Shown: piece by piece, positions 2,623 through 43,444 of the stretch
How the letters are laid out: each line of letters begins with the position of its first letter
How positions within the stretch are numbered: the first letter of the stretch is position 1
From: a virus
Taxonomy: Duplodnaviria; Heunggongvirae; Uroviricota; Caudoviricetes
Direction: 5' to 3' (one strand)
Virus record (IMG/VR): IMGVR_UViG_2851966386_000001
Span: 1 to 43,444 of that record
Length of the DNA: 43,444 bases
Translations under genes and position numbers: made by a program
Notes under the pieces: model-generated
What the model was told of the DNA's origin: nothing
The model's input: the letters and a program-made list of their open reading frames with translations, nothing else
Databases searched by the model: none

Positions 2623-2849
2623 TTTCTTTCCTCTGTTATGCCATCACCCGCGCTCACCTGGACAGTATGCAGCGGAGACTGAAGAGCCGCAATGCAGGCT
2701 TGTCGTGTTGTGAGGTAAGGAGATTTATTCTTAGTGGGATCTTTGCGTGTTGCCTGAAGACGCCCTGTGCGTATCCAGTTAATGGCAGTCGGTCTGGATA
2801 TCTTGAGAAAATGACAGGCCTCATCGAGTGTGAGGCTGTATGGCTCCAT
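2499..2849 (-). CDS. xis: Excisionase, P22-type
   Basis: Internal ATG at 2849 preceded by a GAGGTGA RBS; product [37 protein letters not shown] resembles P22 Xis; overlaps the int 5 prime end as in P22. The longer ORF start in the track is rejected. Confidence 0.8.
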
Positions 2850-3154
2850 TATTTCACCTCTTGCTGTGACATTGTTGAAAAATGGATACCAGCTCGTTGC
2901 TGCCAGACGATCCAACCGAGAGTCATATCCCATGCCATGTATTCGTTATTGCCGTTTTTTGCTCTCCGACGATCTACTAAGTCACCGAAACGCTTTTCCA
3001 TGAATAATTCATAAGCTTCGCGTTCATCTGGTTCTACTTCCAGAGATAGGAGTGCGATTTCATAAGCACGGCGCTCAATATCGTCTCGCACGTCAAGGCT
3101 GCTGATACGCTCTTTAATTTCTTTAATCAGTTCTTTGTCGGTAAAAGTGGTCAT
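2849..3154 (-). CDS. Hypothetical early-left protein (YfdT-like, 101 aa)
   Basis: ORF in an operon context; stop overlaps the xis start by 1 nt (TAATG). Same length and order as CPS-53 yfdT, but identity is by recall only. Confidence 0.5.
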   Translation of the reverse strand: MTTFTDKELIKEIKERISSLDVRDDIERRAYEIALLSLEVEPDEREAYELFMEKRFGDLVDRRRAKNGNNEYMAWDMTLGWIVWQQRAGIHFSTMSQQEVK

Positions 3155-3516
3155 TATGCTCCAGCCTCCGGTGCTTTTGGCATTACTGCCCAGTGAGTGA
3201 TATTGACGTTTTCAAGGTCCCCGACCTGAAATGTCCACTGCCATTCTCCGGTTTCTTTTTGTCCCCAGGTGTACCAGAGAGAACGCCAGCCAATTAGCCA
3301 GCCTTCTCCGTTAGCATCGAATAACAAAACACTTTCATTTGCTGGTGGCAGTTCAGTTGACACTGGTATTACTTTGTTTTCCTGTGCTGCACATTTAGCT
3401 TCAAGCGCATCGAATTTACGCACTAGGTATTCAGCATCTGTTTCATTTACTTTCAGATCTCGCGGTACACATCTCCCACGAAGAAACCCTTCCATTTCGA
3501 AAACATTCATGCGCAT
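3154..3516 (-). CDS. DUF551-like phage protein (YfdS-like, 120 aa)
   Basis: ORF tightly packed in the leftward operon; Trp-rich C-terminus typical of DUF551 proteins from prophage early regions. Family assignment is from memory. Confidence 0.55.
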   Translation of the reverse strand: MRMNVFEMEGFLRGRCVPRDLKVNETDAEYLVRKFDALEAKCAAQENKVIPVSTELPPANESVLLFDANGEGWLIGWRSLWYTWGQKETGEWQWTFQVGDLENVNITHWAVMPKAPEAGA

Positions 3517-4043
3517 TTGCGTAACTCCGATAACTCGTTAAAGCGTTCCATAAACATCCCGTAGGCATGGCCCGGTGCCAGTGGAATCACGTTGAACATC
3601 TCTGTTGCCGGGATACCTTCCAGTACAGGCCAGAAAGAGCCATCATCAAGCCCGAGATCGCGGCGTTCGGTTGCCAGCATGATGAGATCGGCATATTTCA
3701 CGGGCGTACTCATAACTGGGGGTAACCCGTATTTCTCACGGATTACGGCGTCTATTTTTTCTTCCATTTGTTTATAGTCAGGAAGAAGGCGTTTCAGTGG
3801 TGCGGGAATGTCCTGGCAATACGCTTCTGTTGCATCATGCATTAACGCTTCAAAAGCAAATTCCTGCGGCACCAGCTGGCTGCAAAGAACCGCATGTTGG
3901 GCGACGCTGTAGAAGTGCGAAAGATGACCGGCAAAGCGACAGATATTTGAAAGGGAAACCGCGATATCGTTAATATCGATGTCGTCTTTATTTATCCTGT
4001 CATAATAAAAATGCTTCCCGGAAAAAGTTTTAATAAATGACAT
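3507..4043 (-). CDS. HD-domain phosphohydrolase, 5-prime-deoxynucleotidase-like (YfdR-like, 178 aa)
   Basis: H...HD motif (SVAQHAV...LMHDATEAY). Start chosen at the internal ATG at 4043, which has a GGAGA RBS; the upstream ATG at 4070 lacks one. Confidence 0.7.
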   Translation of the reverse strand: MSFIKTFSGKHFYYDRINKDDIDINDIAVSLSNICRFAGHLSHFYSVAQHAVLCSQLVPQEFAFEALMHDATEAYCQDIPAPLKRLLPDYKQMEEKIDAVIREKYGLPPVMSTPVKYADLIMLATERRDLGLDDGSFWPVLEGIPATEMFNVIPLAPGHAYGMFMERFNELSELRKCA

Positions 4044-4170
4044 TTTGTTCTCCACGTATATGCGCTGCACCGCGCTGAATTCTGGTAAAAAGAATCCCTC
4101 ACCATCCGGCGATTATTGAGTAAATTACGTTTCCATAAATGCCCCCGCAGGGGCATTTGCAGTAATGAAA

Positions 4171-4995
4171 TCAGGCGGTGAAAGTACCAATAAAGGTTTC
4201 TACTTTGCTGTCCTTGAATTTCTCAACAAGCAGATCACGAAATTCGTTAGCCATTTCTTCCTGCACCGCCTCCAGCTGAATAATGCGCAGAACCAGTACA
4301 GGACGATCGCCAGTGATAATACTGAGGCGTAATTTAAACGGACGTTCTTTCAGACCTTCAAACGGAACGCATTTAAATTCAAATGCCACTGGCATAATGT
4401 CTTTGGTCTTCGCTTCGACAGACTCCATCAGGGAGCGTTTGCCGCTGAAGTCATTATCTTCAAAATCAGCGGTCTGGTTTGCTTCAATCGTGATTTTACG
4501 GACAGCCGCAGCCGCTTTTGTTGCCTGAATAGCGTCACCATTAGCATCAAAGCCCACAAGATAGTCGGCCCAGTCTTCAATCCATTCTGCTAGTGACTTC
4601 TGGGAGTTACGCTCGCCGTTAACAGACAACAGAGCAGAGAACGGTGCTGTCTTTTTCAGTTTGAGTGTGGCGGTGTTATCTGCGTGACCTGGTTCATCAA
4701 TAGTACCTAGGTTAAGCACACTGACGGCACGCATATTATCAGCATCGATAAAGCAGCGGGTGCCTTCATCTGCAAGATCTTTAGAATAACGGGTAAAATC
4801 ATCGATGCTGGCAGTGGAAAGCGTACCACGGAAACGGAAGCGATTTAAATTAAATTTTTCCAGATCATGAATGCGGAAATTCTCAGGCAATGCCACAGCA
4901 TCGGCACCAATCTTACTGATAATTTCATTAACACCCTGAGCAGAAATAAGGGCATGGATTTGATTAATTGCGGTTGCGTCTAAGTTCTGAGACAT
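4171..4995 (-). CDS. DUF2303 family phage protein (YfdQ-like, 274 aa)
   Basis: 274-aa ORF; sequence resembles YfdQ of the CPS-53 prophage as recalled; preserved gene order with the HD-domain and DUF551 genes. Confidence 0.65.
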
Positions 4996-5060
4996 AATAA
5001 GTCCTCACTATATAAAGATATTCAGTGATGAGATAAATAATCAGTTAATTAAAAACGATA

Positions 5061-5423
5061 TTAACGACCTGCTGCGCGGAGTTTTCCGTCAGGTTCACCG
5101 GCAAGAGTCAGCAACTGTCCCTGGTCTTCCTGCAGAATAGTCAGGCGACCACCGCGATTGACATACATCGGCGTTTCGGTGGTGTCTTCTTCGGAAATTT
5201 TCCCGCGGTTAGTCGGGCGAACATATGAGAGTTTGTGTTTGATTTTCACTCGGTTCTCATCAAACGGTTCGATTTCTAGGTTGAGCGAGACCTTACCTTT
5301 GGTTTTCGTGTTCATCACACCGGAAGCGACTTCACTGAGAACTGCGCCGATTTTGGTTTCAAATACGCCGCCGTCCAGCTCCCCGATAAATGCCTGCACA
5401 TCAGTACTGCGTTCGCTAGCCAT
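5061..5423 (-). CDS. Hypothetical early-left protein (YfdP-like, 120 aa)
   Basis: Start chosen at ATG 5423 (MASERSTDVQ...) preceded by a GAGGAG RBS 8 nt upstream; the longer track ORF lacks an RBS and runs into a structured GC-rich region. Confidence 0.6.
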   Translation of the reverse strand: MASERSTDVQAFIGELDGGVFETKIGAVLSEVASGVMNTKTKGKVSLNLEIEPFDENRVKIKHKLSYVRPTNRGKISEEDTTETPMYVNRGGRLTILQEDQGQLLTLAGEPDGKLRAAGR

Positions 5424-5893
5424 TTTGCTGCTCCTCATCATATCGACCCTGCAAGGTCGGTTGGTTTCTCCACAAAACAGAGAAGAACACCTGCGGTGGC
5501 AGCCGCCCGGATGGATTGGGTTATGAGCCCGTCGTCCGGTGATGCTCTTCTCTGTTTTGCAAAAAAGGACGGTACCAGCCGGAAGCAAGGGTACAAACTG
5601 GTACCGCCAGGACTACACACAGCATAAAGTTGTGGTGCCGGGTGCCTCCCGGTGCCTGGCGAAGGTTGCACACCAGGCGGGTGGGTATCCACAGAAGGTC
5701 GACTGTCAGCCTCAACCTTAACCCGCGTGCGCTGAGCCGCATTCACCACAACGCTAAGGATTCTCTCTGGTTGAAAATACTTAGCTGTTATGTGCCTGCT
5801 TTTAGCCACATCAGGCGAGGTGGACCTGGTTATTCCCCAACAACAAGGATTCGGTTAATCTGGATATCCCCAACAACAATAAGAGTATTCAAT

Positions 5894-6409
5894 GTGATCG
5901 CTGAATTAACGGCAGCAATGACGGCTATTCGTGAAATCGCCCAGATTGCAAAACTAATGAACGAGGCAAAAACTCAAGCTGAAGTAAATGCGGCTATTGG
6001 TGAGCTGAACTCAAAGCTTGCGTCTATTCAGCGCGAATGCGTGTCTCTCGTTGAACTGCTGGGCTCTTATCAAGAAATAAATGCTTCTCTCAAAGCTAAA
6101 ATTGCAGAATTCGAAAACTTTGAGGCTCAGACGGAAGGCTATATCCTTAACCAACTTGAGTCGGGTACTTTTGTATACTCGAAGGAGGTAATCGTGAACG
6201 GTGACAGCATAACCATGCATCTTTGCCCAAAATGTTTTGGACAAAAGATAGTATCGATACTTCAACCATTCCCGGTTAGCGAAGATGAGCTTTTTCATAA
6301 AAGCAGGTGCCTCCACTGTGAAAATAAGTTTCTGATGAATAAAAATCCGGATTACGTATCGCCTCCATCCATTGAGGAGTTGGCCAGAAAACTTAACGGC
6401 AATCTGTAG
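5894..6409 (+). CDS. Coiled-coil protein with C-terminal C4 zinc ribbon (CPKC...x21...CLHC); unknown function, candidate exclusion/defence moron
   Basis: GTG at 5894 (AAGAG 10 nt upstream) or ATG at 5918; lower GC than flanks; followed by an intrinsic terminator. Plus strand between the minus-strand early-left operon and cI, convergent with the inferred pL. Confidence 0.55.
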   Translation: MIAELTAAMTAIREIAQIAKLMNEAKTQAEVNAAIGELNSKLASIQRECVSLVELLGSYQEINASLKAKIAEFENFEAQTEGYILNQLESGTFVYSKEVIVNGDSITMHLCPKCFGQKIVSILQPFPVSEDELFHKSRCLHCENKFLMNKNPDYVSPPSIEELARKLNGNL

Positions 6410-6447
6410 ATTGCTACTGTTGTGGATATCCAGATTGTTAAAGAGCT

Positions 6448-6472
6448 AAGCGTCCTGTAGGGCGCTTTTTTG
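6448..6472 (+). terminator. Intrinsic terminator after the zinc-ribbon gene
   Basis: Hairpin AGCGTCC-TGTA-GGGCGCT (one G-U pair) followed by TTTTTTG. Confidence 0.6.
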
Positions 6473-6557
6473 TTGCTAACGAATCATCCTGGACTTCATA
6501 TGCCCCAGGCGGCTACTTCGTGGGCGTCCTGCCTGTTCGTTATCTTTGATATAAAAT

Positions 6558-6571
6558 CTAACTTAACTTAG
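6558..6571. promoter_or_regulatory. oL-like operator (CTAAC-TTAA-CTTAG) with putative leftward pL
   Basis: Matches the palindromic operator form found at oR; lies just beyond the cI stop; further CTTAG half-sites at 6603, 6616 and 6636; candidate TTGCCA/TAGATT promoter elements on the minus strand. Confidence 0.45.
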
Positions 6572-6636
6572 TTATTATGGCAAGAGAAAACACCAAACTT
6601 TTCTTAGTTCGGTGCCTTAGTTAGAGAAGAGAGGTC

Positions 6637-7263
6637 TTAGAGTTCGTATTGAACTCCTTTGACTACACCAATGATAAGGCAATTACCATTGATAGGGATG
6701 TTGGGATACCGAGGATTTAATGGCACTAAAAACTTTTGAGGGCCATCGATGACTAATTTTTTTACTGTAGCTTCGTTTGTTCCATCAAGTCGAGCGATGA
6801 CTATTTTTCCATGACGAGGTTCTGCATCTGGATCTACAATCACTGTTGCGCCTTCTGGTATTGTTGGGAGGCCATTAGGGTTAGTCATGGAGTCACCTTT
6901 AACCTCTAATGCAAATGAGTTATCACCAATCTTTAATGATGTATCTACCCACTTGTCCACTTCACTAAACACTTCTGCTGCCCTGCACTCAGTAAACTGC
7001 CCAGCCTGAACCCACGATATTACAGGAACTCTGCGCATGTTTGTGACGAGTTTGCCTTCAAACTCAGCACCATAAAGAATGTAATCTATTGACGTATTGA
7101 AGAACTTCGCTAATTTCGAAAGTGCCTCCCCACCAGGGGTATTGATGTCTTTCTCCCAGTACCCCACAGCAACGTCGCTTACTCCACAAAATTTACCCAA
7201 TTCTTTCTGGGACGTTCCGGTAACTCTTCTCAGAGCTTTTATACGCTGACCAACCGTTTCCAT
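6637..7263 (-). CDS. cI: CI-type immunity repressor (HTH_XRE plus S24 LexA-like peptidase)
   Basis: N-terminal HTH, an Ala-Gly autocleavage site (WVQAGQF), and a GDSM...KK Ser/Lys dyad; divergent from cro. Confidence 0.9.
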   Translation of the reverse strand: METVGQRIKALRRVTGTSQKELGKFCGVSDVAVGYWEKDINTPGGEALSKLAKFFNTSIDYILYGAEFEGKLVTNMRRVPVISWVQAGQFTECRAAEVFSEVDKWVDTSLKIGDNSFALEVKGDSMTNPNGLPTIPEGATVIVDPDAEPRHGKIVIARLDGTNEATVKKLVIDGPQKFLVPLNPRYPNIPINGNCLIIGVVKGVQYEL

Positions 7264-9927: not shown

Positions 9928-10580
9928 TGAGTAATAAATATTGCCAGGCGCTGGTGGAACTGCGGAACAAACCAGCCCATGAACTGAAGGAAGTGGGCGA
10001 TCAGTGGCGCACGCCGGACAACATTTTCTGGGGAATTAACACCCTGTTTGGCCCGTTTGTTCTGGATCTGTTCACTGACGGTGATAACGCCAAATGTGCT
10101 GCGTATTACACGGCGGAAGACAACGCGCTGGCGCATGACTGGTCAGAACGCCTTGCGGAGCTTAAAGGTGCTGCCTTTGGTAATCCCCCATACAGCCGCG
10201 CCAGTCAGCATGAGGGGCAATACATCACAGGCATGCGTTACATCATGAAGCATGCCAGTGCCATGCGTGATAAAGGTGGGCGCAATGTTTTCCTGATCAA
10301 AGCTGCCACCAGCGAAGTGTGGTGGCCGGAAGATGCAGATCATATTGCTTTTATTCGCGGGCGTATCGGTTTTGAACTGCCTGCCTGGTTTATCCCGAAG
10401 GATGAGAAGCAGGTGCCGACAGGAGCTTTCTTCGCTGGTGCTATTGCTGTTTTCGACAAGACCTGGAAGGGACCGGCAATCAGCTACATCGGGCGCGATG
10501 AACTTGAGGCATGTGGTGAGGCCTTTCTGGCGCAGGTTCGCCAGCAGGCAGAAAAACTGGTCAGGGAGATGGTGGCATGA
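9927..10580 (+). CDS. Phage N6-adenine DNA methyltransferase (Dam-like, orphan)
   Basis: NPPY catalytic motif (GNPPYSR); start at ATG 9927 (MSNKYCQ) with a TAATG overlap with the upstream gene; no adjacent restriction gene. Confidence 0.75.
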   Translation: MSNKYCQALVELRNKPAHELKEVGDQWRTPDNIFWGINTLFGPFVLDLFTDGDNAKCAAYYTAEDNALAHDWSERLAELKGAAFGNPPYSRASQHEGQYITGMRYIMKHASAMRDKGGRNVFLIKAATSEVWWPEDADHIAFIRGRIGFELPAWFIPKDEKQVPTGAFFAGAIAVFDKTWKGPAISYIGRDELEACGEAFLAQVRQQAEKLVREMVA

Positions 10581-10903
10581 CGACGTTAACTCAATGTCAG
10601 CAGCAGGTGCTGGATATGCTGATTTCTTATCAGAAAGAACGTGGCTTCCCGCCAACCAATCAGGAGGTGGCAACCATGCTGGGATACCGTTCGGTGAATG
10701 CAGCGGTGGAGCATCTTCGCGCACTGGAGAAAAAAGGCGTCATCACGATAAAGCGTGGTGTGGCCCGGGGGATAACGCTTCATACCGCGGTCAAGGACGA
10801 CGACAGCGAGGCGGTCGGGATTATCCGCTCACTGCTTGCCGGTGAGGAAAACGCCAGGCTGCGTGCAGCCCACTGGTTACATGAGAGGGGTCTGAAAGTA
10901 TGA
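10577..10903 (+). CDS. LexA N-terminal DNA-binding-domain protein (no peptidase domain)
   Basis: MTTLTQCQQQVLDMLISYQKERGFPPTNQEVATMLGYRSVNAAVEHLRALEKKGVI matches the LexA winged-helix domain pattern; 108 aa only. Confidence 0.65.
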   Translation: MTTLTQCQQQVLDMLISYQKERGFPPTNQEVATMLGYRSVNAAVEHLRALEKKGVITIKRGVARGITLHTAVKDDDSEAVGIIRSLLAGEENARLRAAHWLHERGLKV

Positions 10904-12107: not shown

Positions 12108-13103
12108 GTGACCGTGAGAGCACTACTGACCCCTGAAATTGCCCCGCGTATGGGGATCGTATTGTTCAGGCCAGGTTCAGAGCTGATGCCCCTGTTTATG
12201 CAGGGGCGTGTCCTGCTGGAGCCTGAGCCGGAACGTTATTCATCTTTCGCCAGTGGTGCCGTTCCGGCGGCATCACAACCGCTGGCGGATGATCCTGCCG
12301 TTCGGGCCGTGTTCCGCAATGAGGCAGTGATCCGTCGTGCTGGTGGCGTGGAATGTCTTGAAAGCTGGTTACTTCGTGAAAAGGGCTGTCAGTGGCCTCA
12401 TTCCGACTGGCACAGCGAGAACATGACCACAATGCGGCACGCTCCGGGCGCAATCCGTCTGTGCTGGCACTGTGATAACCAGCTGCGTGACCAGTTCACG
12501 GAACGGCTGGAATCAATGGCAACGGATAACTGTGCCCGCTGGGTGTTGTCTGTCGTGCGTCGGGATCTCGGTTTTGATGACAGTCACGTTGTGACAATGC
12601 CGGAACTGTGCTGGTGGCTGGTTCGTAATGACCTGGCGGATGCCTTGCCGGAAAGTGCAGCCCGTAAGGCACTGAGATTACCGAAGCCTGTTGTGCCGTC
12701 TGTCACCCGGGAAAGTGACCTTGTTCCTTCTGTTCCTGCCACCAGCATCATCCAGGATAAAGCGAAAAAGGTGCTGGCGCTGAAAGTGGATCCGGAGTCG
12801 CCGGAGTCTTTTATGTTACGCCCAAAACGTCGCCGCTGGGTTAATGAAAAGTACACGCGCTGGGTTAAGACACAACCGTGTGCATGTTGTGGAAAGCCCG
12901 CTGATGATCCCCACCACCTGATAGGTCACGGTCAGGGTGGAATGGGAACAAAAGCGCATGACCTTTTTGTGTTGCCTTTGTGCAGAAAGCATCACGACGA
13001 GCTGCATGCGGATACCGTGGCATTTGAAGAGAAGTATGGTTCCCAGCTGGAGCTGATATTTCGTTTTATCGATCGTGCGCTGGCAATTGGCGTGCTGGCC
13101 TGA
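12108..13103 (+). CDS. DUF968-like protein (YdfU-like), Cys/His-rich C-terminus
   Basis: GTG start directly after the upstream stop; C-terminal CxxC...HH...H cluster (CACCGKPADDPHHLIGHGQGG...CRKHHDELH); family assigned from memory. Confidence 0.5.
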   Translation: MTVRALLTPEIAPRMGIVLFRPGSELMPLFMQGRVLLEPEPERYSSFASGAVPAASQPLADDPAVRAVFRNEAVIRRAGGVECLESWLLREKGCQWPHSDWHSENMTTMRHAPGAIRLCWHCDNQLRDQFTERLESMATDNCARWVLSVVRRDLGFDDSHVVTMPELCWWLVRNDLADALPESAARKALRLPKPVVPSVTRESDLVPSVPATSIIQDKAKKVLALKVDPESPESFMLRPKRRRWVNEKYTRWVKTQPCACCGKPADDPHHLIGHGQGGMGTKAHDLFVLPLCRKHHDELHADTVAFEEKYGSQLELIFRFIDRALAIGVLA

Positions 13104-13121
13104 TTTTTGTGGGGTAAGTTG

Positions 13122-13466
13122 ATGCGTGATATGTATGAAGTATTGGACCGCTGGGGAGCATGGGCTGCAGCAGACAACAGTGGTGTGGACTGGCAGCCGG
13201 TAGCAGCAGGCTTCAAGGGGCTTTTACCTCATGGCAAAAAGTCACGGATTCAGTGTGATGATGACGAAGGCATTATGATAGACAGTTGTGTGGCTCGGTT
13301 GAGAAAGTATAAACCAGAGGAATATGAGCTCATCATAGCCCACTTTGTTATTGGTATCTCATTACGCACTATTGCCAAAAGGAGAAGGTGCTCTGATGGC
13401 ACTATTAGGAAGGAGTTGCAAACCGCAATCGGTTTTATAGAGGGGGTTGTAAGTATACTTGTGTAA
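13122..13466 (+). CDS. Putative late antiterminator (Q-like, small family)
   Basis: ATG at 13122 with a GGGGTAA RBS; last gene before the lysis module; C-terminal HTH-like segment. Assignment by position and recall of a small antiterminator-Q family, not verified. Confidence 0.45.
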   Translation: MRDMYEVLDRWGAWAAADNSGVDWQPVAAGFKGLLPHGKKSRIQCDDDEGIMIDSCVARLRKYKPEEYELIIAHFVIGISLRTIAKRRRCSDGTIRKELQTAIGFIEGVVSILV

Positions 13467-13476
13467 AATAATAAAA

Positions 13477-13491
13477 GGCGGTAGTACCGCC
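13477..13491 (-). terminator. Intrinsic terminator of the AT-rich minus-strand operon
   Basis: Perfect palindrome GGCGGTA-G-TACCGCC, followed on the minus strand by TTTTATTATTTT; sits between the Q-like stop and the stop of the last operon gene. Confidence 0.65.
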
Positions 13492-14106
13492 TTAATGATC
13501 GAATCGTTGTATGTTTTCATGGAATCTACAAAAGTGAATAGATATTTTGAATAGTAAAATGTAGAAACCAACTTGACTTAAAGTTATGGCTTTGCATTTA
13601 TCATTCAAGAGTTTTTGTAATTCTTCCGTTGGTAATTGGTATACATCATCAAGAAAAACGATGCATTCTTCTAAGTTGTCTGATTCAGGAAGATAAAAAA
13701 TATTAGTAATTAACTGCTTCCTTATAGCATCAATTTTGCTATCTATTGAAGTCTTAGAAACTCCGTTGGAGAGAAGAATAGCTTCGAACTTAGATAAACT
13801 TACTAACGGAGCAAAGACTGCACGCATTGGCACATCACGATTATTACTTGTATCTATATCGCAACTGTTGCTTAATATAATGCCTCGTGTTTTTTTAGTC
13901 CCTTTAATTGAATATACTGTAAGCTCCTTAAATATATCTCCCTGAAGTGCAGCATTTTTCAGATCATCATGATAATTGCTAAGGTAGTAGTTAGTGTTTT
14001 CAGGGAAATCTCTAAGTGCATTTATTAGCCCTTCTTTTTGATGAGCTGTTAAATAATATGGAATTTGATCTTTGAATTTCTCGATATCAAAAATGTTATT
14101 ACTCAT
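13492..14106 (-). CDS. Hypothetical protein C of AT-rich operon (204 aa), no recognisable domain
   Basis: ATG at 14106, 3 nt after the upstream stop; very AT-rich, Lys/Asn/Ile-rich composition; hydrophobic segment near the C-terminus. Confidence 0.6.
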   Translation of the reverse strand: MSNNIFDIEKFKDQIPYYLTAHQKEGLINALRDFPENTNYYLSNYHDDLKNAALQGDIFKELTVYSIKGTKKTRGIILSNSCDIDTSNNRDVPMRAVFAPLVSLSKFEAILLSNGVSKTSIDSKIDAIRKQLITNIFYLPESDNLEECIVFLDDVYQLPTEELQKLLNDKCKAITLSQVGFYILLFKISIHFCRFHENIQRFDH

Positions 14107-14109
14107 CAC

Positions 14110-14454
14110 TTAATCCAAGTATAAATCCCACAGTGAAGCATGAACGACTTTATTTATTTCACTGCCTAAAGACACCTGGTTTGTCGATAATTTTTCATAA
14201 AAGTTTGTCATCGAGACTGCAAGTCTTTGATCAACTGAGATTGTGCTCCCTGCTTTATATGTTTGTGTGATGGAATGAACTGAATCGGTAGTTGAAGACT
14301 TATACTCCAAAGCGTGATTTTTGACGATTAAACTTTGTTGAGGACCATGCTGTTGATTTTGGGCAATGTCTGTTAATGCAGTTATATGCAGACCATATAA
14401 AACCAAAGTTAATACTTGAAGTTGAGCTCGATAAACATGATGAGACGGATACAT
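14110..14454 (-). CDS. Hypothetical protein B of AT-rich operon (114 aa), possible N-terminal hydrophobic helix
   Basis: ATG at 14454 with a GGTGG RBS 7 nt upstream; hydrophobic stretch LQVLTLVLYGLHITAL. Confidence 0.55.
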   Translation of the reverse strand: MYPSHHVYRAQLQVLTLVLYGLHITALTDIAQNQQHGPQQSLIVKNHALEYKSSTTDSVHSITQTYKAGSTISVDQRLAVSMTNFYEKLSTNQVSLGSEINKVVHASLWDLYLD

Positions 14455-14469
14455 ATCATACCACCATTT

Positions 14470-15219
14470 CTATTTGTAGGATGGTTCTAGTTCTTGAATT
14501 GTTGACTCTTTAAGGCAACTAAAGAAAGCTAATTTATTACAGGAGTGAAGATCATCAAGAATTTTTTTTGGTTCGTTTTTAAACTTATCTATTTCATCAG
14601 TATTAGTGATTTGCCTAATGCTGTCTATGTCTAGGATTAGTCCTTTTTTATTAAATTCTCCATTATCTGACATGACTAAAGCATGAGATAATATTTGAAT
14701 TATATTTAGAAATGCGCCTTCATTTTTATCGATTCTGATATTGATCGGATAATTAGACATAGACTCGCCAGCCATATTTAAGCTGACGTTTAGCTTATCA
14801 AATAAATTAGAATCGTCTTCTTTTGGGAAAAAATCTACATACTTTAATGAGTAGCGGATGATGTTGTCATTTAAATTTAATTTGTTAAGCTCATTTAATA
14901 CATGAATGATTTTTTCTCTAAAATGACTCCACCCTTGATATTTGGTGCTGGTGGATACAACAACACCATGGTCACTTAGTCCAATATAGTACCCTTCGAT
15001 TTCGAGGCGACTGACAACTGCGTAATGTAATTGTTCATCTCCCTCACGAACATTTTTAGGTATTTGACTGGGTGGTAAACTAATTACTGGTTTTGTACAA
15101 CCTAGAGCGTGAAAAAGAAACCCTGGAACTATTTCCGATATTTGTGTTTCTTTAGAAAAACGCATTTCGAAAGCAGCTTCGATTACTGGTTGTTTTGATA
15201 GAGATGTTGGAATGAGCAT
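14470..15219 (-). CDS. Hypothetical protein A of AT-rich operon (249 aa); N-terminal PVIEAAFEMRF motif
   Basis: First gene of a three-gene minus-strand operon; no homologue I can name with confidence. The N-terminal motif resembles what I recall of the TIGR04255 family (unverified). Confidence 0.6.
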   Translation of the reverse strand: MLIPTSLSKQPVIEAAFEMRFSKETQISEIVPGFLFHALGCTKPVISLPPSQIPKNVREGDEQLHYAVVSRLEIEGYYIGLSDHGVVVSTSTKYQGWSHFREKIIHVLNELNKLNLNDNIIRYSLKYVDFFPKEDDSNLFDKLNVSLNMAGESMSNYPINIRIDKNEGAFLNIIQILSHALVMSDNGEFNKKGLILDIDSIRQITNTDEIDKFKNEPKKILDDLHSCNKLAFFSCLKESTIQELEPSYK

Positions 15220-15446
15220 TTAAAACCCATAGTATGTTTTATGAGCTGATTGGATTTTGAGCATAGCTACCGCACGAATCTTCGAGGAAGATCCAAACAT
15301 GTGCCTCATGTCGCATCATGCTCAAGGCGGCATAAATTTTGTTTACTGAGTATAAGATTAACAACCATTAACTTCCATCAAAAATGCTAACGCGTACGCA
15401 AAAACTATTGTATCGTGTTAAGAGTGGTCACTTCGCCACACAGCTT

Positions 15447-15479
15447 AAACCCGCCGTCGAGCGGGTTTGTCGTTTCTGG
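15447..15479 (+). terminator. Intrinsic terminator upstream of the lysis genes (tR-prime-like)
   Basis: Perfect 8-bp stem AAACCCGC-CGTCGA-GCGGGTTT followed by GTCGTTTCT, 140 bp upstream of the holin. Confidence 0.5.
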
Positions 15480-15619
15480 CCCCGGCTATTTGTTGAGCCT
15501 GGTCTATACCGCAGTTATCCATTGGCTCGGCCTCTTTTACGTTTCCGCTTCTGATTTGCGGTACATGATGTTCCCTCAATTTGCACCTCCTGTATTGGCG
15601 AGGTGAGAGATAACTACAA

Positions 15620-15946
15620 ATGCCTCATAACCCAAATACCTGGCTGGAGTTGGTCCAGAGCTGGTGGCGTGGAGACACACCGCTGGGCGCAGTGATTATG
15701 TCGATTGTTATGGCTGGTTTACGTATTGCCTATTTTGGCGGTGGTGGCGGCTGGAAGCGAAAAACACTCGAAATTCTACTCTGTGGCGCTCTGACGCTGA
15801 CTTTTGCATCCGCTCTTGAGTATGTCGGATGGCCTAAATCACTATCTGTTGCCATTGGTGGTGGGGTGGGGCTGATCGGTGTCGATGCTATTCGTGGGGC
15901 TGCAATGCGAGTAATCGGTAACAAATTTGGTGGCTCTAAGGAGTAA
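15620..15946 (+). CDS. Holin (three predicted TM segments)
   Basis: 108-aa protein with three hydrophobic segments and a charged C-terminus, immediately upstream of the endolysin. Confidence 0.75.
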   Translation: MPHNPNTWLELVQSWWRGDTPLGAVIMSIVMAGLRIAYFGGGGGWKRKTLEILLCGALTLTFASALEYVGWPKSLSVAIGGGVGLIGVDAIRGAAMRVIGNKFGGSKE

Positions 15947-15949
15947 TTT

Positions 15950-16426
15950 ATGCAGGTACTAAATTCCCAGCGTAAAGCTTTCCTCGATATGGTGGCTTGG
16001 TCAGAAGGAACGGATAACGGACGACAACCGACACGTAACCACGGTTATGACGTTATTGTTGGTGGTGAACTCTTCACTGATTACTCCGATCACCCTCGCA
16101 AACTTGTCACGCTAAACCCGAAACTCAAGTCAACAGCCGCCGGACGTTACCAGCTTCTTTCACGCTGGTGGGATGCTTACCGTAAACAGCTTGGCCTGAA
16201 AGATTTTTCTCCAGAAAGCCAGGACGTTGTAGCTCTGCAGCAGATTAAAGAGCGTGGCGCTTTACCGATGATTGACCGCGGTGATATTCGTCAGGCAATC
16301 GACCGTTGCAGCAATATCTGGGCTTCATTGCCCGGGGCTGGTTATGGCCAGTTCGAGCATAAGGCTGACAGCCTGATTGCAAAATTCAAAGAAGCTGGCG
16401 GAACAGTCAGAGAGATTGAGGTATGA
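15950..16426 (+). CDS. R: Endolysin, lambda R-type lytic transglycosylase
   Basis: AAGGAG RBS; near-identical to lambda R as recalled ([45 protein letters not shown]...). Confidence 0.95.
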
Positions 16427-17350: not shown

Positions 17351-17761
17351 TTAGTGCGGAAATATTTGTGTAGTGTTCTGAATGTTCTCAGTAAAGAGTA
17401 ATGAATTATCAAAGGTATAGTAATACCTTTTGTTTTCGTGGATATTTGTAATCCATCTGAAAACCCCTGCTGTAGCAAGATTTTTCCTGTATTCGTAAAA
17501 TGATAACTCTCCTGATTTGAATCCTTTTAATGTGGCTTCTATAAGGCATTTATTTTTTGAAAATCTTACATTTACAACCTTACCCTGTCCTTTTATTAAA
17601 ACCGTATTATCGTTTTCAAGAACAAGATGAATATTCTCTGTGGCTAAATAGTAAATGTAATGTGAGACATTGTGACGTTTTAGTTCAGAATAAAACCAGT
17701 GATAGTTTAAATTATTTCGCACTTTATCGAATATTTGTTTAAAAATGGCAACCTGAGCCAT
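17351..17761 (-). CDS. DUF1398-like protein (YbcV-like, 136 aa)
   Basis: Start chosen at ATG 17761 (MAQVAIF...) with a GGAAGG RBS; length and position (between the lysis genes and cos) match DLP12 ybcV, by recall. Confidence 0.5.
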
Positions 17762-17817
17762 TGTAGTACCTTCCATGTGATATGAGGGGCGTAGTCTGCA
17801 CGATTATCTAAATTGCT

Positions 17818-18051
17818 TCAATCTGGTCTGATCTGTTTTCTGAGCAATTCAGTAATGTCACTCTTTTCTTTGTTTGCTTCAGGAGAAACTCTTTTTTCTG
17901 AGCACAGTCTCCGGCGGCAGGCTTCAATGACCCAGGCTGAGAAATTCCCGGACCCTTTTTGATCAAGAGCGATGTTAATTTGTTCAATCATTTGGTTAGG
18001 AAAGCGGATGTTGCGGGTTGTTGTTCTGCGGGTTCTGTTCTTCGTTGACAT
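17818..18051 (-). CDS. Small basic DNA-binding protein, ribbon-helix-helix-like (YlcI/DUF3950-like)
   Basis: Arg-rich N-terminus followed by NIRFPNQMIEQINIALDQ, a pattern typical of RHH proteins. Confidence 0.45.
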   Translation of the reverse strand: MSTKNRTRRTTTRNIRFPNQMIEQINIALDQKGSGNFSAWVIEACRRRLCSEKRVSPEANKEKSDITELLRKQIRPD

Positions 18052-37337: not shown

Positions 37338-37937
37338 ATGCGTAAAGTTTGTGCAGCAATTTTGTCCGCAGCCATTTGTCTGGCCGTATCCGGTGCGCCT
37401 GCATGGGCGTCTGAACATCAGTCCACGCTGAGCGCGGGGTATCTTCATGCCTCGACGAACGTCCCCGGCAGTGATGATCTGAACGGGATTAACGTGAAAT
37501 ACCGTTATGAGTTTACGGACACACTGGGGCTGGTGACGTCATTCAGCTATGCAGGAGACAAGAATCGCCAGCTGACCCGTTACAGCGATACCCGCTGGCA
37601 TGAAGATTCCGTTCGTAACCGCTGGTTCAGCGTAATGGCGGGGCCGTCTGTGCGCGTGAATGAATGGTTCAGCGCGTATGCGATGGCGGGTGTAGCTTAC
37701 AGCCGTGTGTCGACTTTCTCCGGGGATTATATCCGCGTAACTGACAATAAGGGGAAAACGCACGATGTGCTGACCGGAAGTGATGACGGTCGCCACAGCA
37801 ACACGTCTCTGGCGTGGGGGGCTGGCGTGCAGTTTAACCCGACCGAGTCCGTGGCCATTGATGTCGCTTATGAAGGTTCCGGCAGTGGCGACTGGCGCAC
37901 TGACGGTTTCATCGTGGGTGTCGGTTATAAATTCTGA
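37338..37937 (+). CDS. lom: Lom outer membrane protein (Ail/Lom family)
   Basis: Signal peptide (MRKVCAAILSAAICLAVSGAPAWA) and a beta-barrel-like sequence with a C-terminal aromatic residue (…VGYKF); the lambda lom position after J. Confidence 0.85.
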   Translation: MRKVCAAILSAAICLAVSGAPAWASEHQSTLSAGYLHASTNVPGSDDLNGINVKYRYEFTDTLGLVTSFSYAGDKNRQLTRYSDTRWHEDSVRNRWFSVMAGPSVRVNEWFSAYAMAGVAYSRVSTFSGDYIRVTDNKGKTHDVLTGSDDGRHSNTSLAWGAGVQFNPTESVAIDVAYEGSGSGDWRTDGFIVGVGYKF

Positions 37938-41935: not shown

Positions 41936-42826
41936 TCAGGCTGCCAGATCATCGTTTCCGATGGAAGCATAATAAGCTTTTTCTGCTTCTGCCGGAGGAG
42001 TATGGCCCAGCCTTTCCAGCAATCGTCGATTGTTATACCAGTCCACCCACGTGAGTGTGGCCAGTTCCACTTCTGCACGGTTTTTCCAGCTCTTACGGTG
42101 TATTACCTCCGCTTTGTAAAGACCATTGATGCTCTCCGCCATCGCGTTGTCATACGAGTCGCCTGTACTTCCTGTTGATGCCAGTAATCCGGCTTCCTTA
42201 AGCCGCTGTGTGTAGGCCAGCGATACATACTGAGAACCTTTATCACTGTGATGGACCGTGCCGGACGGTCGACGGGCCCATAACGCCTGCTCCAGTGCAT
42301 CCAGCACGAATGTCGTTTCCATGGACGATGAGACCCGCCACCCCACGATGTATCCGGCAAACACATCAATGATGAACGCCACATAGACGAAGCCCCGCCA
42401 TGTGCTGACGTAAGTAAAATCAGCCACCCACAGCTGGTCAGGTCGTTCTGCCACGAACTGACGGTTTACGCGGTCGCCTGCGGCAACGGCTTTCCGGCTG
42501 ATGGTCGTACGGACCTTTTTACCCCGGAGAACACCGGCAAGTCCCATAACCGCCATGAGACGTGCCACAGTGCATCTGGCCACTCTGATACCTTCCCGTA
42601 ACAACTGACGCCAGACTTTACGCACACCGTATACCTTGTGATTTTCATCGTATACGCGCTGTATCTCTTTCTTCAGCCAGTCATCGCGCTGCGCACGGGC
42701 ACTGCGTTTATCCGGATGATGTCGCTGTTGCTGACAGTGGTAATACGTTGACGGGGCAATATGCAGTTCGCTGCATAGCGGTCCGACCCCGTACTGCTCA
42801 CGCAGCTTATCCAGCAGTGGCATCAT
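41936..42826 (-). CDS. IS3-family transposase OrfB (DDE integrase domain)
   Basis: 296-aa ORF with a DDE-type catalytic region (…DFTYV…HSDKGSQY…DNAMAES…) downstream of orfA. Confidence 0.9.
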
Positions 42827-43149
42827 TTTTTCCAGAGGCGGTCGAACTCCGCCTTCGCAAAATAAGCGGAAGCCTGGCGAAGGATATCGTTACTGCGGCG
42901 CAGTTCACGATTTTCACGTTCCAGCTCTTTCAGACGCTGACGTTCAGCGGTGGTGAGCCCTCCATCACCGCCCCCGGTATCCCGCTCATGCTGGCGAACC
43001 CAGACACGCAGAGTCTCCGGCGTACAGCCAATCTTTGGAGCAATGGAACAAATTGTCGCCCATTGTGAGTCATATTCGCTCTGACTTTCCAGAACCATAC
43101 GGACTGCCCGTTGACGGACTTCGGGGGAAAAACGAGTATTTTTAGTCAT
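42823..43149 (-). CDS. IS3-family transposase OrfA (HTH)
   Basis: 108-aa [56 protein letters not shown]... with a leucine-zipper-like C-terminus; the stop overlaps the orfB start at an A-rich run (TGGAAAAAATGATG). Confidence 0.9.
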
Positions 43150-43203
43150 CCTGTTTACCTCTTTCTCAGGAAGTTTAGTCTCCAGGATTCCCGGGGCGGT
43201 TCA

Positions 43204-43444
43204 GGGTGTAGTACAGCACTCCACCAAGAGTAATTGCGTTGAAATTACCAACAGGCGTCAGTGTCACAGTACCAACCTGTCGAATCATACCATTTGGGAG
43301 AATATCCCAGGCAGTTTGTCCGTTTCGCGACATACCAAATGCGGACATGTCCGGGAGTTGATTATTACCGGTTCCGACATCCCGTTTTGCCGCTTCTCCC
43401 AATTGAACGTTTATGAAAATGCAGAAATAGCGCGCAAATGGCAT
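43204..43444 (-). pseudogene. 5-prime part of the alternative tail-fibre variable segment (Sv-prime), continues beyond the window
   Basis: Translation ...FINVQLGEAAKRDVGTGNNQLPDMSAFGMS... parallels Stf ...FRNALQLGTAATRDVGADNASKLLGLDSFRSM..., i.e. a paralogous receptor-binding domain on the opposite strand. Confidence 0.6.

Follow-up and report, generated by a model that had tools for sequence, protein, structure and literature searches.

Tripartite toxin–antitoxin (TA) systems, among them the toxin–antitoxin–chaperone modules, HipBST, and PaaR-PaaA-ParE, are three-gene operons of mobile elements in which the toxin-like gene comes last and translation is coupled. Temperate phages also carry small accessory operons; the rexAB genes of lambda, for instance, occupy the slot immediately after cI. 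Among P2-like phages, a documented defense hotspot is the gpA-gpQ region by the portal gene, where P2 itself carries old and tin (PMC9122126). In type II Gabija, the GajC protein contains a MazF-like domain with a helical insertion and is the presumed anti-phage effector (PMC13069673). Here we describe a cassette of three genes, referred to as A, B, and C, in a 43,444-nt stretch of DNA (IMG/VR record IMGVR_UViG_2851966386_000001, positions 1 to 43,444; "the window" denotes this whole stretch). This stretch amounts to a complete lambdoid prophage inserted at tRNA-Thr beside proA and is identical to a prophage of Escherichia coli EC29. We propose that these genes constitute a horizontally mobile conflict module, self-contained and made up of three proteins, with a toxin-like effector at its center. 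Most likely it is a prophage-borne abortive-infection or defense system of the TA type; we assign this reading a probability of about 0.5.

The cassette lies on the minus strand between the Q antiterminator gene and the holin gene. Its features, with the genes and boundaries that frame it, are as follows.

13122..13466, plus strand: Q antiterminator gene.
About 13445..15380, no strand assigned: exchangeable cargo module, delimited by blastn against four prophages of the same backbone that carry other cargo (L100-L103).
13493..13475, minus strand: intrinsic terminator found by a terminator scan, with the stem-loop AAGGCGGTACTACCGCCTT followed by the T-run TTATTATTTT.
13492..14106, minus strand: gene C, 204 aa from its ATG (205 aa from a GTG one codon upstream), putative toxic effector.
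14110..14454, minus strand: gene B, 114 aa, a fast-evolving small protein and putative neutralizer or adaptor (from the list of open reading frames).
14470..15219, minus strand: gene A, 249 aa, TIGR04255 family, putative sensor or regulator (from the list of open reading frames).
15261..15294, minus strand: conserved leader lying about 55 nt ahead of gene A (from an alignment of five divergent loci).
15354..15349, minus strand: TATACT, a −10-like hexamer and candidate cassette promoter (from sequence and alignment).
15620..15946, plus strand: holin gene.

A first-pass annotation, made from the sequence alone, had described three tightly packed minus-strand genes of 249, 114, and 204 aa with very low GC content and a terminator of their own, and this description holds in each particular. 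The open reading frames are as described, and RefSeq annotates the same three CDSs in the identical prophage; A and B are separated by 15 nt, and the start codon of C follows the stop codon of B after the 3 nt originally reported. GC content is 0.333 in the triad and 0.531 in the remainder of the window (0.31–0.35 across the cassette in 500-nt windows, as compared with about 0.47–0.58 on the flanks). The terminator recovered by the scan lies 9 nt past the stop codon of Q, which is encoded on the opposite strand. The three genes make up a single compact unit that reads leftward into its own terminator, and the unit falls outside the Q-dependent late transcript because it is antisense to that transcript and lies upstream of the conserved pR′/tR′ block.

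A profile of C was run against one genome per species (185,579 genomes) and matched in 150 of these, of which 80 loci were analyzed. These loci span the Alpha-, Beta-, and Gammaproteobacteria, Desulfobacterota, Geobacter, Syntrophales, Myxococcales, Magnetococcales, Muiribacteriota, and Bacteroidota. Hidden Markov models (HMMs) recover A-B-C in the same order and on the same strand in 74 of the 80; four of the others have a gap of the size of B between A and C, and two are cut by contig ends. Among IMG/VR contigs the triad is present in 47 of 52 (three with a B-sized gap, two cut). In total, the HMMs for A, B, and C detect the full triad in 121 of 132 independent loci, which shows that the open reading frames are genuine genes rather than chance occurrences. 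In the phage and plasmid collections, A occurs exactly where C occurs and nowhere else. The triad is also AT-richer than its flanks in 99% of 70 loci, with a median difference of 12 percentage points. It travels as an indivisible unit among phages, islands, and phyla.

Within E. coli, 92 of 5426 complete genomes carry the cassette and its flanks at 99% identity or more, and the 25 matches listed are all 100% identical; these copies probably represent one prophage spreading with a successful clone. Many of the carrier strain names (WCHEC..., NDM3-6, NDM_11/12, CREC8) suggest carbapenem-resistant clinical isolates. Module decay is seen in at least one lineage: an otherwise identical cassette (L124; IMG/VR 2547132254_000004, about 4889–6614) has a frameshifted C (78 + 113 aa) and a truncated A (229 aa).

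The position of the cassette within the prophage was resolved by comparison with relatives that share its KilA-N/DUF968/Q backbone and carry different antisense cargo in the same slot. Homology with them breaks off at 13436–13448, within the last codons of Q, and restarts at 15380–15387; the last few Q codons differ with each cargo and are brought along by it. An 89-bp block immediately beyond (15380–15468) is retained in all four relatives. It contains a promoter-like site and a terminator (15446–15469), and recalls the stretch that follows Q in lambda-like phages. The alternative cargo comprises a two-gene PADLOC candidate, PDC-M53, in L100 (PDC-M53A, 1e-30; PDC-M53B, 2e-54); an NA37 nucleoid-associated protein with a 408-aa protein in L101; two hypothetical genes in L102; and three unrelated hypothetical genes in L103. 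In this backbone, the space between Q and the pR′/tR′-like block is a swap site for antisense cargo. The slot had earlier been likened to that of the toxin genes in Stx phages. The stx genes lie downstream of pR′ in the late transcript and are Q-dependent; a cargo slot between Q and the lysis genes is indeed present here, but the analogy is only approximate: by its antisense orientation and its location between the end of Q and the pR′/tR′ block, the triad is not in the position of a Stx-type late-operon moron.

Elsewhere, the triad occupies further cargo slots of temperate phages, four different ones in all. In this window, as in Klebsiella and Yersinia prophages whose packaging modules differ, it fills the space between Q and the lysis genes; other Klebsiella prophages carry the triad in the nin region. 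In the P2-like Pseudomonas phage Dobby it is cos-proximal and adjoins the portal gene, and in Pseudomonas phage VW-6S it lies directly after cI and before int, the slot that rexAB occupies in lambda. In VW-6S (L099), a small gene at 4861–5001, just upstream of C and at the position expected for B, is annotated "integrase (XerC)"; this is probably a misannotated, truncated call of B. Across 32 viral contigs, the most frequent neighbors include CI-type repressors (HTH_3 in seven contigs, Peptidase_S24 in six) and integrases (four). Outside phages, the triad is found in a Pantoea region resembling an integrative and conjugative element (ICE) or a plasmid, and in islands with MazEF, integrases, group II introns, ParE, BrnT, and Wadjet; its nearest neighbors are heterogeneous, integrases being the commonest. 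The triad is accessory, mobile, and sporadic, and it resides in cargo hotspots and islands, as is generic for defense systems.

Gene C encodes the most conserved component: pairwise identities are 49–64% for C, as compared with 28–65% for A and 20–30% for B. In its structural model, C has the MazF/CcdB/Kid-superfamily fold, a beta-barrel with a C-terminal helix, with a core at about residues 55–200 preceded by a helical N-terminal extension. Among 230 C sequences, D57, N80, C82, N88, S189, R194, and R201 are invariant, and Q55, G56, D83, R90, and H191 are nearly so. We read these patterns as suggesting a new branch of the fold with an active site of its own; because the invariant residues differ from the catalytic Arg/Thr pair of MazF, the chemistry of C is probably different as well. 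Any action of C on nucleic acid is conjecture. The possibility of a strict Cys/His zinc site was considered and ruled out, as C193 is replaced in 10 of the 230 sequences and H196 in 36. The first-pass annotation had also suggested membrane helices in both B and C. For C this does not stand, the hydrophobic segment being the C-terminal helix of a globular fold and bearing invariant polar residues; for B the hydropathy is borderline.

Protein B is the least conserved of the three. Its 80 homologs are built alike: the N-terminus is short and polar and leads into a stretch of about 15 hydrophobic residues, after which a variable linker connects to a conserved C-terminal helix. This helix spans about 45 aa, has the pattern ...F..V..FY..L..NQ..LG.E.E.V....LWDLY.D, and ends in LWDLY(E/D). 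The 20–30% identity given above for B is found between the very loci whose C proteins are 49–64% identical, and a word-indexed search with B returned self-matches only. In PHROGs, B falls within phrog_5728, labeled "unknown function," as are the families of A and C. The hydrophobic stretch starts near residue 13, with slightly positive charge before it and slightly negative charge after it; the median hydropathy of the 19-residue window is 1.52, and only 32% of the sequences exceed 1.6.

Protein A falls within NCBIfam TIGR04255, with a full-length match of 96.2 bits (curated cut-off, 30) that aligns residues 7–244 to positions 2–251 of the 252-position model. RefSeq names it after this "sporadically distributed protein" family, to which no function has been assigned. 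The family has 2036 representatives among 1.84 billion protein clusters; the 150 representatives listed are all about 240–330 aa long, mostly near 250 aa, and a Pfam scan of these 150 returned no match. A has a duplicated beta-alpha-beta3-alpha fold with a conserved charged face on its beta-sheet. The PVIEAAFEMRF motif singled out in the first-pass annotation is present, and it falls in the most conserved N-terminal strand of the family, where at least 95% of 157 sequences retain E18 and R20. The earlier statement that none of the three proteins could be assigned to a known toxin, nuclease, ATPase, or defense family is correct only in part: A belongs to a named family and C can be assigned at the level of fold to a toxin superfamily, while the absence of sequence matches to toxin or defense families stands.

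Sequence searches of Pfam, PADLOC, and the PDB returned no match for A, B, or C, and no family in PADLOC-DB v2.0.0 was hit by any of them at E values up to 1, in keeping with the claim of an undescribed system; as a positive control, the cargo of L100 in the same slot does match PDC-M53A and PDC-M53B. The searchable literature, subscription-only papers excepted, contained nothing on TIGR04255, IPR026349, the three WP accessions, the PHROG identifiers, or MazF-like prophage systems, and no report of the triad reducing phage plating or replication; the system may nonetheless have been described recently under another name. TIGR04255 is named in a table of the DefensePredictor supplement, which includes a SHAP feature list; the mention gave no lead.

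Since the cassette lies between Q and the presumed pR′/qut and is transcribed away from the late operon, its expression must arise from its own upstream region. The TATACT hexamer listed above, which is kept in E. coli and Klebsiella copies and is accompanied by a weak −35, may represent the cassette promoter. Downstream of it, the conserved leader consists of a 7-bp hairpin with compensatory changes (15294..15276) followed by the invariant sequence GUGCGGUAGC (15275..15266); the RNAalifold prediction has 13 pairs, four of them with compensatory changes. The leader is present only in Enterobacterales copies, in which little of the surrounding intergenic DNA can otherwise be aligned. Distant triads do not have the motif at a fixed position, and an Rfam scan of positions 13000–16000 gave no match. 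We suggest that the element may have a regulatory role.

The mechanism that follows is inferred throughout, from assembly and toxicity to the parts played by A and B, the trigger, and the chemistry. The three proteins would form a complex in which C is the growth-arresting effector. B would act as a neutralizer or adaptor that restrains C through its conserved acidic-hydrophobic C-terminal helix, and might be tethered by its hydrophobic N-terminus. A would serve as sensor or regulator, its charged beta-sheet face binding a small charged ligand or a phage product. When another phage infects, C would be released or activated, and the cell would be arrested before the invader could finish its cycle. 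The conservation ranking (C > A > B) would fit an effector, a sensor, and a neutralizer, respectively. A more specific proposal, which we advance tentatively, is that the triad represents a new three-component immune family in which a TIGR04255 sensor controls an enzyme branch of the MazF/CcdB fold, with a Cys/His/Asp/Arg site, by way of a diversifying and possibly membrane-tethered adaptor; on the same tentative footing, such a family may be widespread at low frequency in Proteobacteria and beyond.

Several results weigh against a TA-type defense module. The fold of C is in itself no proof of toxicity, and the catalytic Arg and Thr of MazF lack conserved equivalents in C: when the two proteins are mapped by eye on sequence and secondary structure, the Arg corresponds to position 74, which is K or R in 191 of 230 sequences (83%), and the Thr to position 103, which is variable (K, P, S, R, N). 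In Pfam, neither C nor any of 119 homologs matched PemK or CcdB at E values up to 1, and hhalign of the C profile with one PemK protein gave a probability of 0.1%. B contains no antitoxin DNA-binding domain recognizable by Pfam. For A there is no informative structural neighbor, and its sensor role is a guess. A consensus scan identified no strong minus-strand sigma-70 promoter upstream of A. Finally, matches to defense-type genes among the neighbors (MTase, AriA, PycC, Old, AbiLi, pAgo) are modest and, with no control set, are not counted as enrichment. The triad had been put forward at first pass as the best candidate in the window for a new anti-phage or abortive-infection system; its conservation as a mobile AT-rich unit, its cargo slots, the toxin-like fold of C, and the lack of a match in PADLOC or the searchable literature are consistent with this, but the link to neighboring defense genes is only modest.

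Among the alternatives, the one that survives best, though we consider it unlikely, is a non-toxic accessory pathway, whether enzymatic, regulatory, or stress-related, that benefits the lysogen and reuses the MazF-like fold. C82, H191, D57/D83, R194, and R201 resemble an enzyme active site unrelated to that of MazF, the conserved charged sheet face of A is typical of ligand binding, and no defense or toxin HMM matches any component. However, the triad is sporadic, AT-rich, and linked to mobile elements, without a fixed metabolic or regulatory neighbor; its middle gene diverges very rapidly, as genes of conflict systems typically do; and one copy, that of L124, has decayed.

Somewhat less probable still is an addiction module, a tripartite TA system that stabilizes the prophage, island, or ICE through post-segregational killing and has no anti-phage role. 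Such a role would account for a toxin-like fold encoded with two partner genes, and for the presence of the triad on several kinds of mobile element, often beside TA pairs (MazEF, ParE, BrnT). It is less easily reconciled with the repeated use of exclusion and defense slots (the P2 old/tin hotspot, the position after cI, and the Q-pR′ site shared with PDC-M53), or with the near absence of the triad from plasmids, where addiction modules are commonest: only two weak matches were found in 72,556 plasmid records. Addiction and defense are nonetheless mutually compatible roles. Envelope superinfection exclusion, in which B would be exported or membrane-anchored and block DNA entry with A and C as cytoplasmic helpers, is very improbable: the hydrophobic stretch of B and its flanking charges point that way, and small membrane proteins such as SieB and Sim are often what prophages use for exclusion from slots of this kind, but the hydropathy of B is borderline, A and C lack signal or membrane segments while being larger and better conserved, and the toxin-like fold of C is left without a role.

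If the proposed conflict module is confirmed, the orphan family TIGR04255 would gain a biological context, and the MazF/CcdB toxin fold would gain a new sequence family with different invariant residues and probably different chemistry. The phage-borne immunity or addiction modules would be joined by a compact system of three genes and about 1.9 kb, and the space between Q and pR′/qut would stand as a lambdoid antisense swap site in which to seek further systems. The module could also affect the phage susceptibility of carrier E. coli strains where phage therapy is considered.

Several other features of the prophage merit mention. A second low-GC antisense pair follows the lysis cassette (17351–18051, minus strand), comprising a DUF1398 gene (17351..17761) and a member of the YlcI/YnfO family (17818..18051); GC content falls to 0.36 at 17501–18000, and the pair is another moron-like insertion. 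On the plus strand, a hypothetical 171-aa gene (5894–6409; WP_000559916.1) lies between the early-left genes and the CI-like repressor gene, in a region with a GC content of about 0.42, and is possibly a cargo gene of the lysogeny module. There are two LexA-family genes, at 6637..7263 (CI-like) and 10577..10903. Homologs of yfdT, yfdR (5′-deoxynucleotidase), yfdQ, and yfdP at 2849–5423 correspond to the gene set of the K-12 cryptic prophage CPS-53. An Ail/Lom family outer-membrane gene (37338–37937) is found between the J tail-tip and tail-fiber genes, the classical position of the lambda lom moron. At the right end of the prophage (41936–43444), an IS3-family transposase gene with a programmed frameshift stands by a truncated gp53-like tail-fiber pseudogene, which indicates that the tail-fiber region has been rearranged.

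Compared with described systems, the triad combines familiar positions and a familiar fold with unfamiliar sequences. It shares its slots in VW-6S and Dobby with lambda rexAB and P2 old/tin, respectively, and resembles these as a small accessory operon of temperate phages; there is no sequence relationship. A three-gene system reported from the P2 hotspot by Rousset et al. (2022) as "three genes with no clear predicted domain" is unlikely to be the same, as the C and B motifs are absent from its supplements, insofar as these were accessible. Membership of A in TIGR04255 by itself explains nothing, as the family has had no assigned function, structure, or partner; to this family the present analysis adds the fixed partners B and C and a fold model. 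With MazF/PemK/Kid and CcdB, C has in common the beta-barrel and C-terminal helix but no sequence or profile similarity. It is twice as large as these toxins, carries about 55 additional N-terminal residues and a helical insert, and has a different invariant cluster, the positions of the MazF catalytic Arg/Thr not being conserved in the by-eye mapping. In contrast to pairing of the MazE, PemI, or CcdA type, C has two upstream partners, neither of which matches an AbrB, RHH, or other antitoxin or DNA-binding domain. GajC, with its MazF-like domain, provides a precedent for such a fold in a defense effector; it works with GajB, a UvrD-type helicase, and no helicase is encoded in this cassette. 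From the tripartite TA systems the triad differs in having no homologous component and no SecB-like chaperone, kinase, or HTH regulator, so that the likeness to them is architectural only: like these systems, it is a three-gene operon of mobile elements, with translational coupling and a toxin-like gene in the last position.

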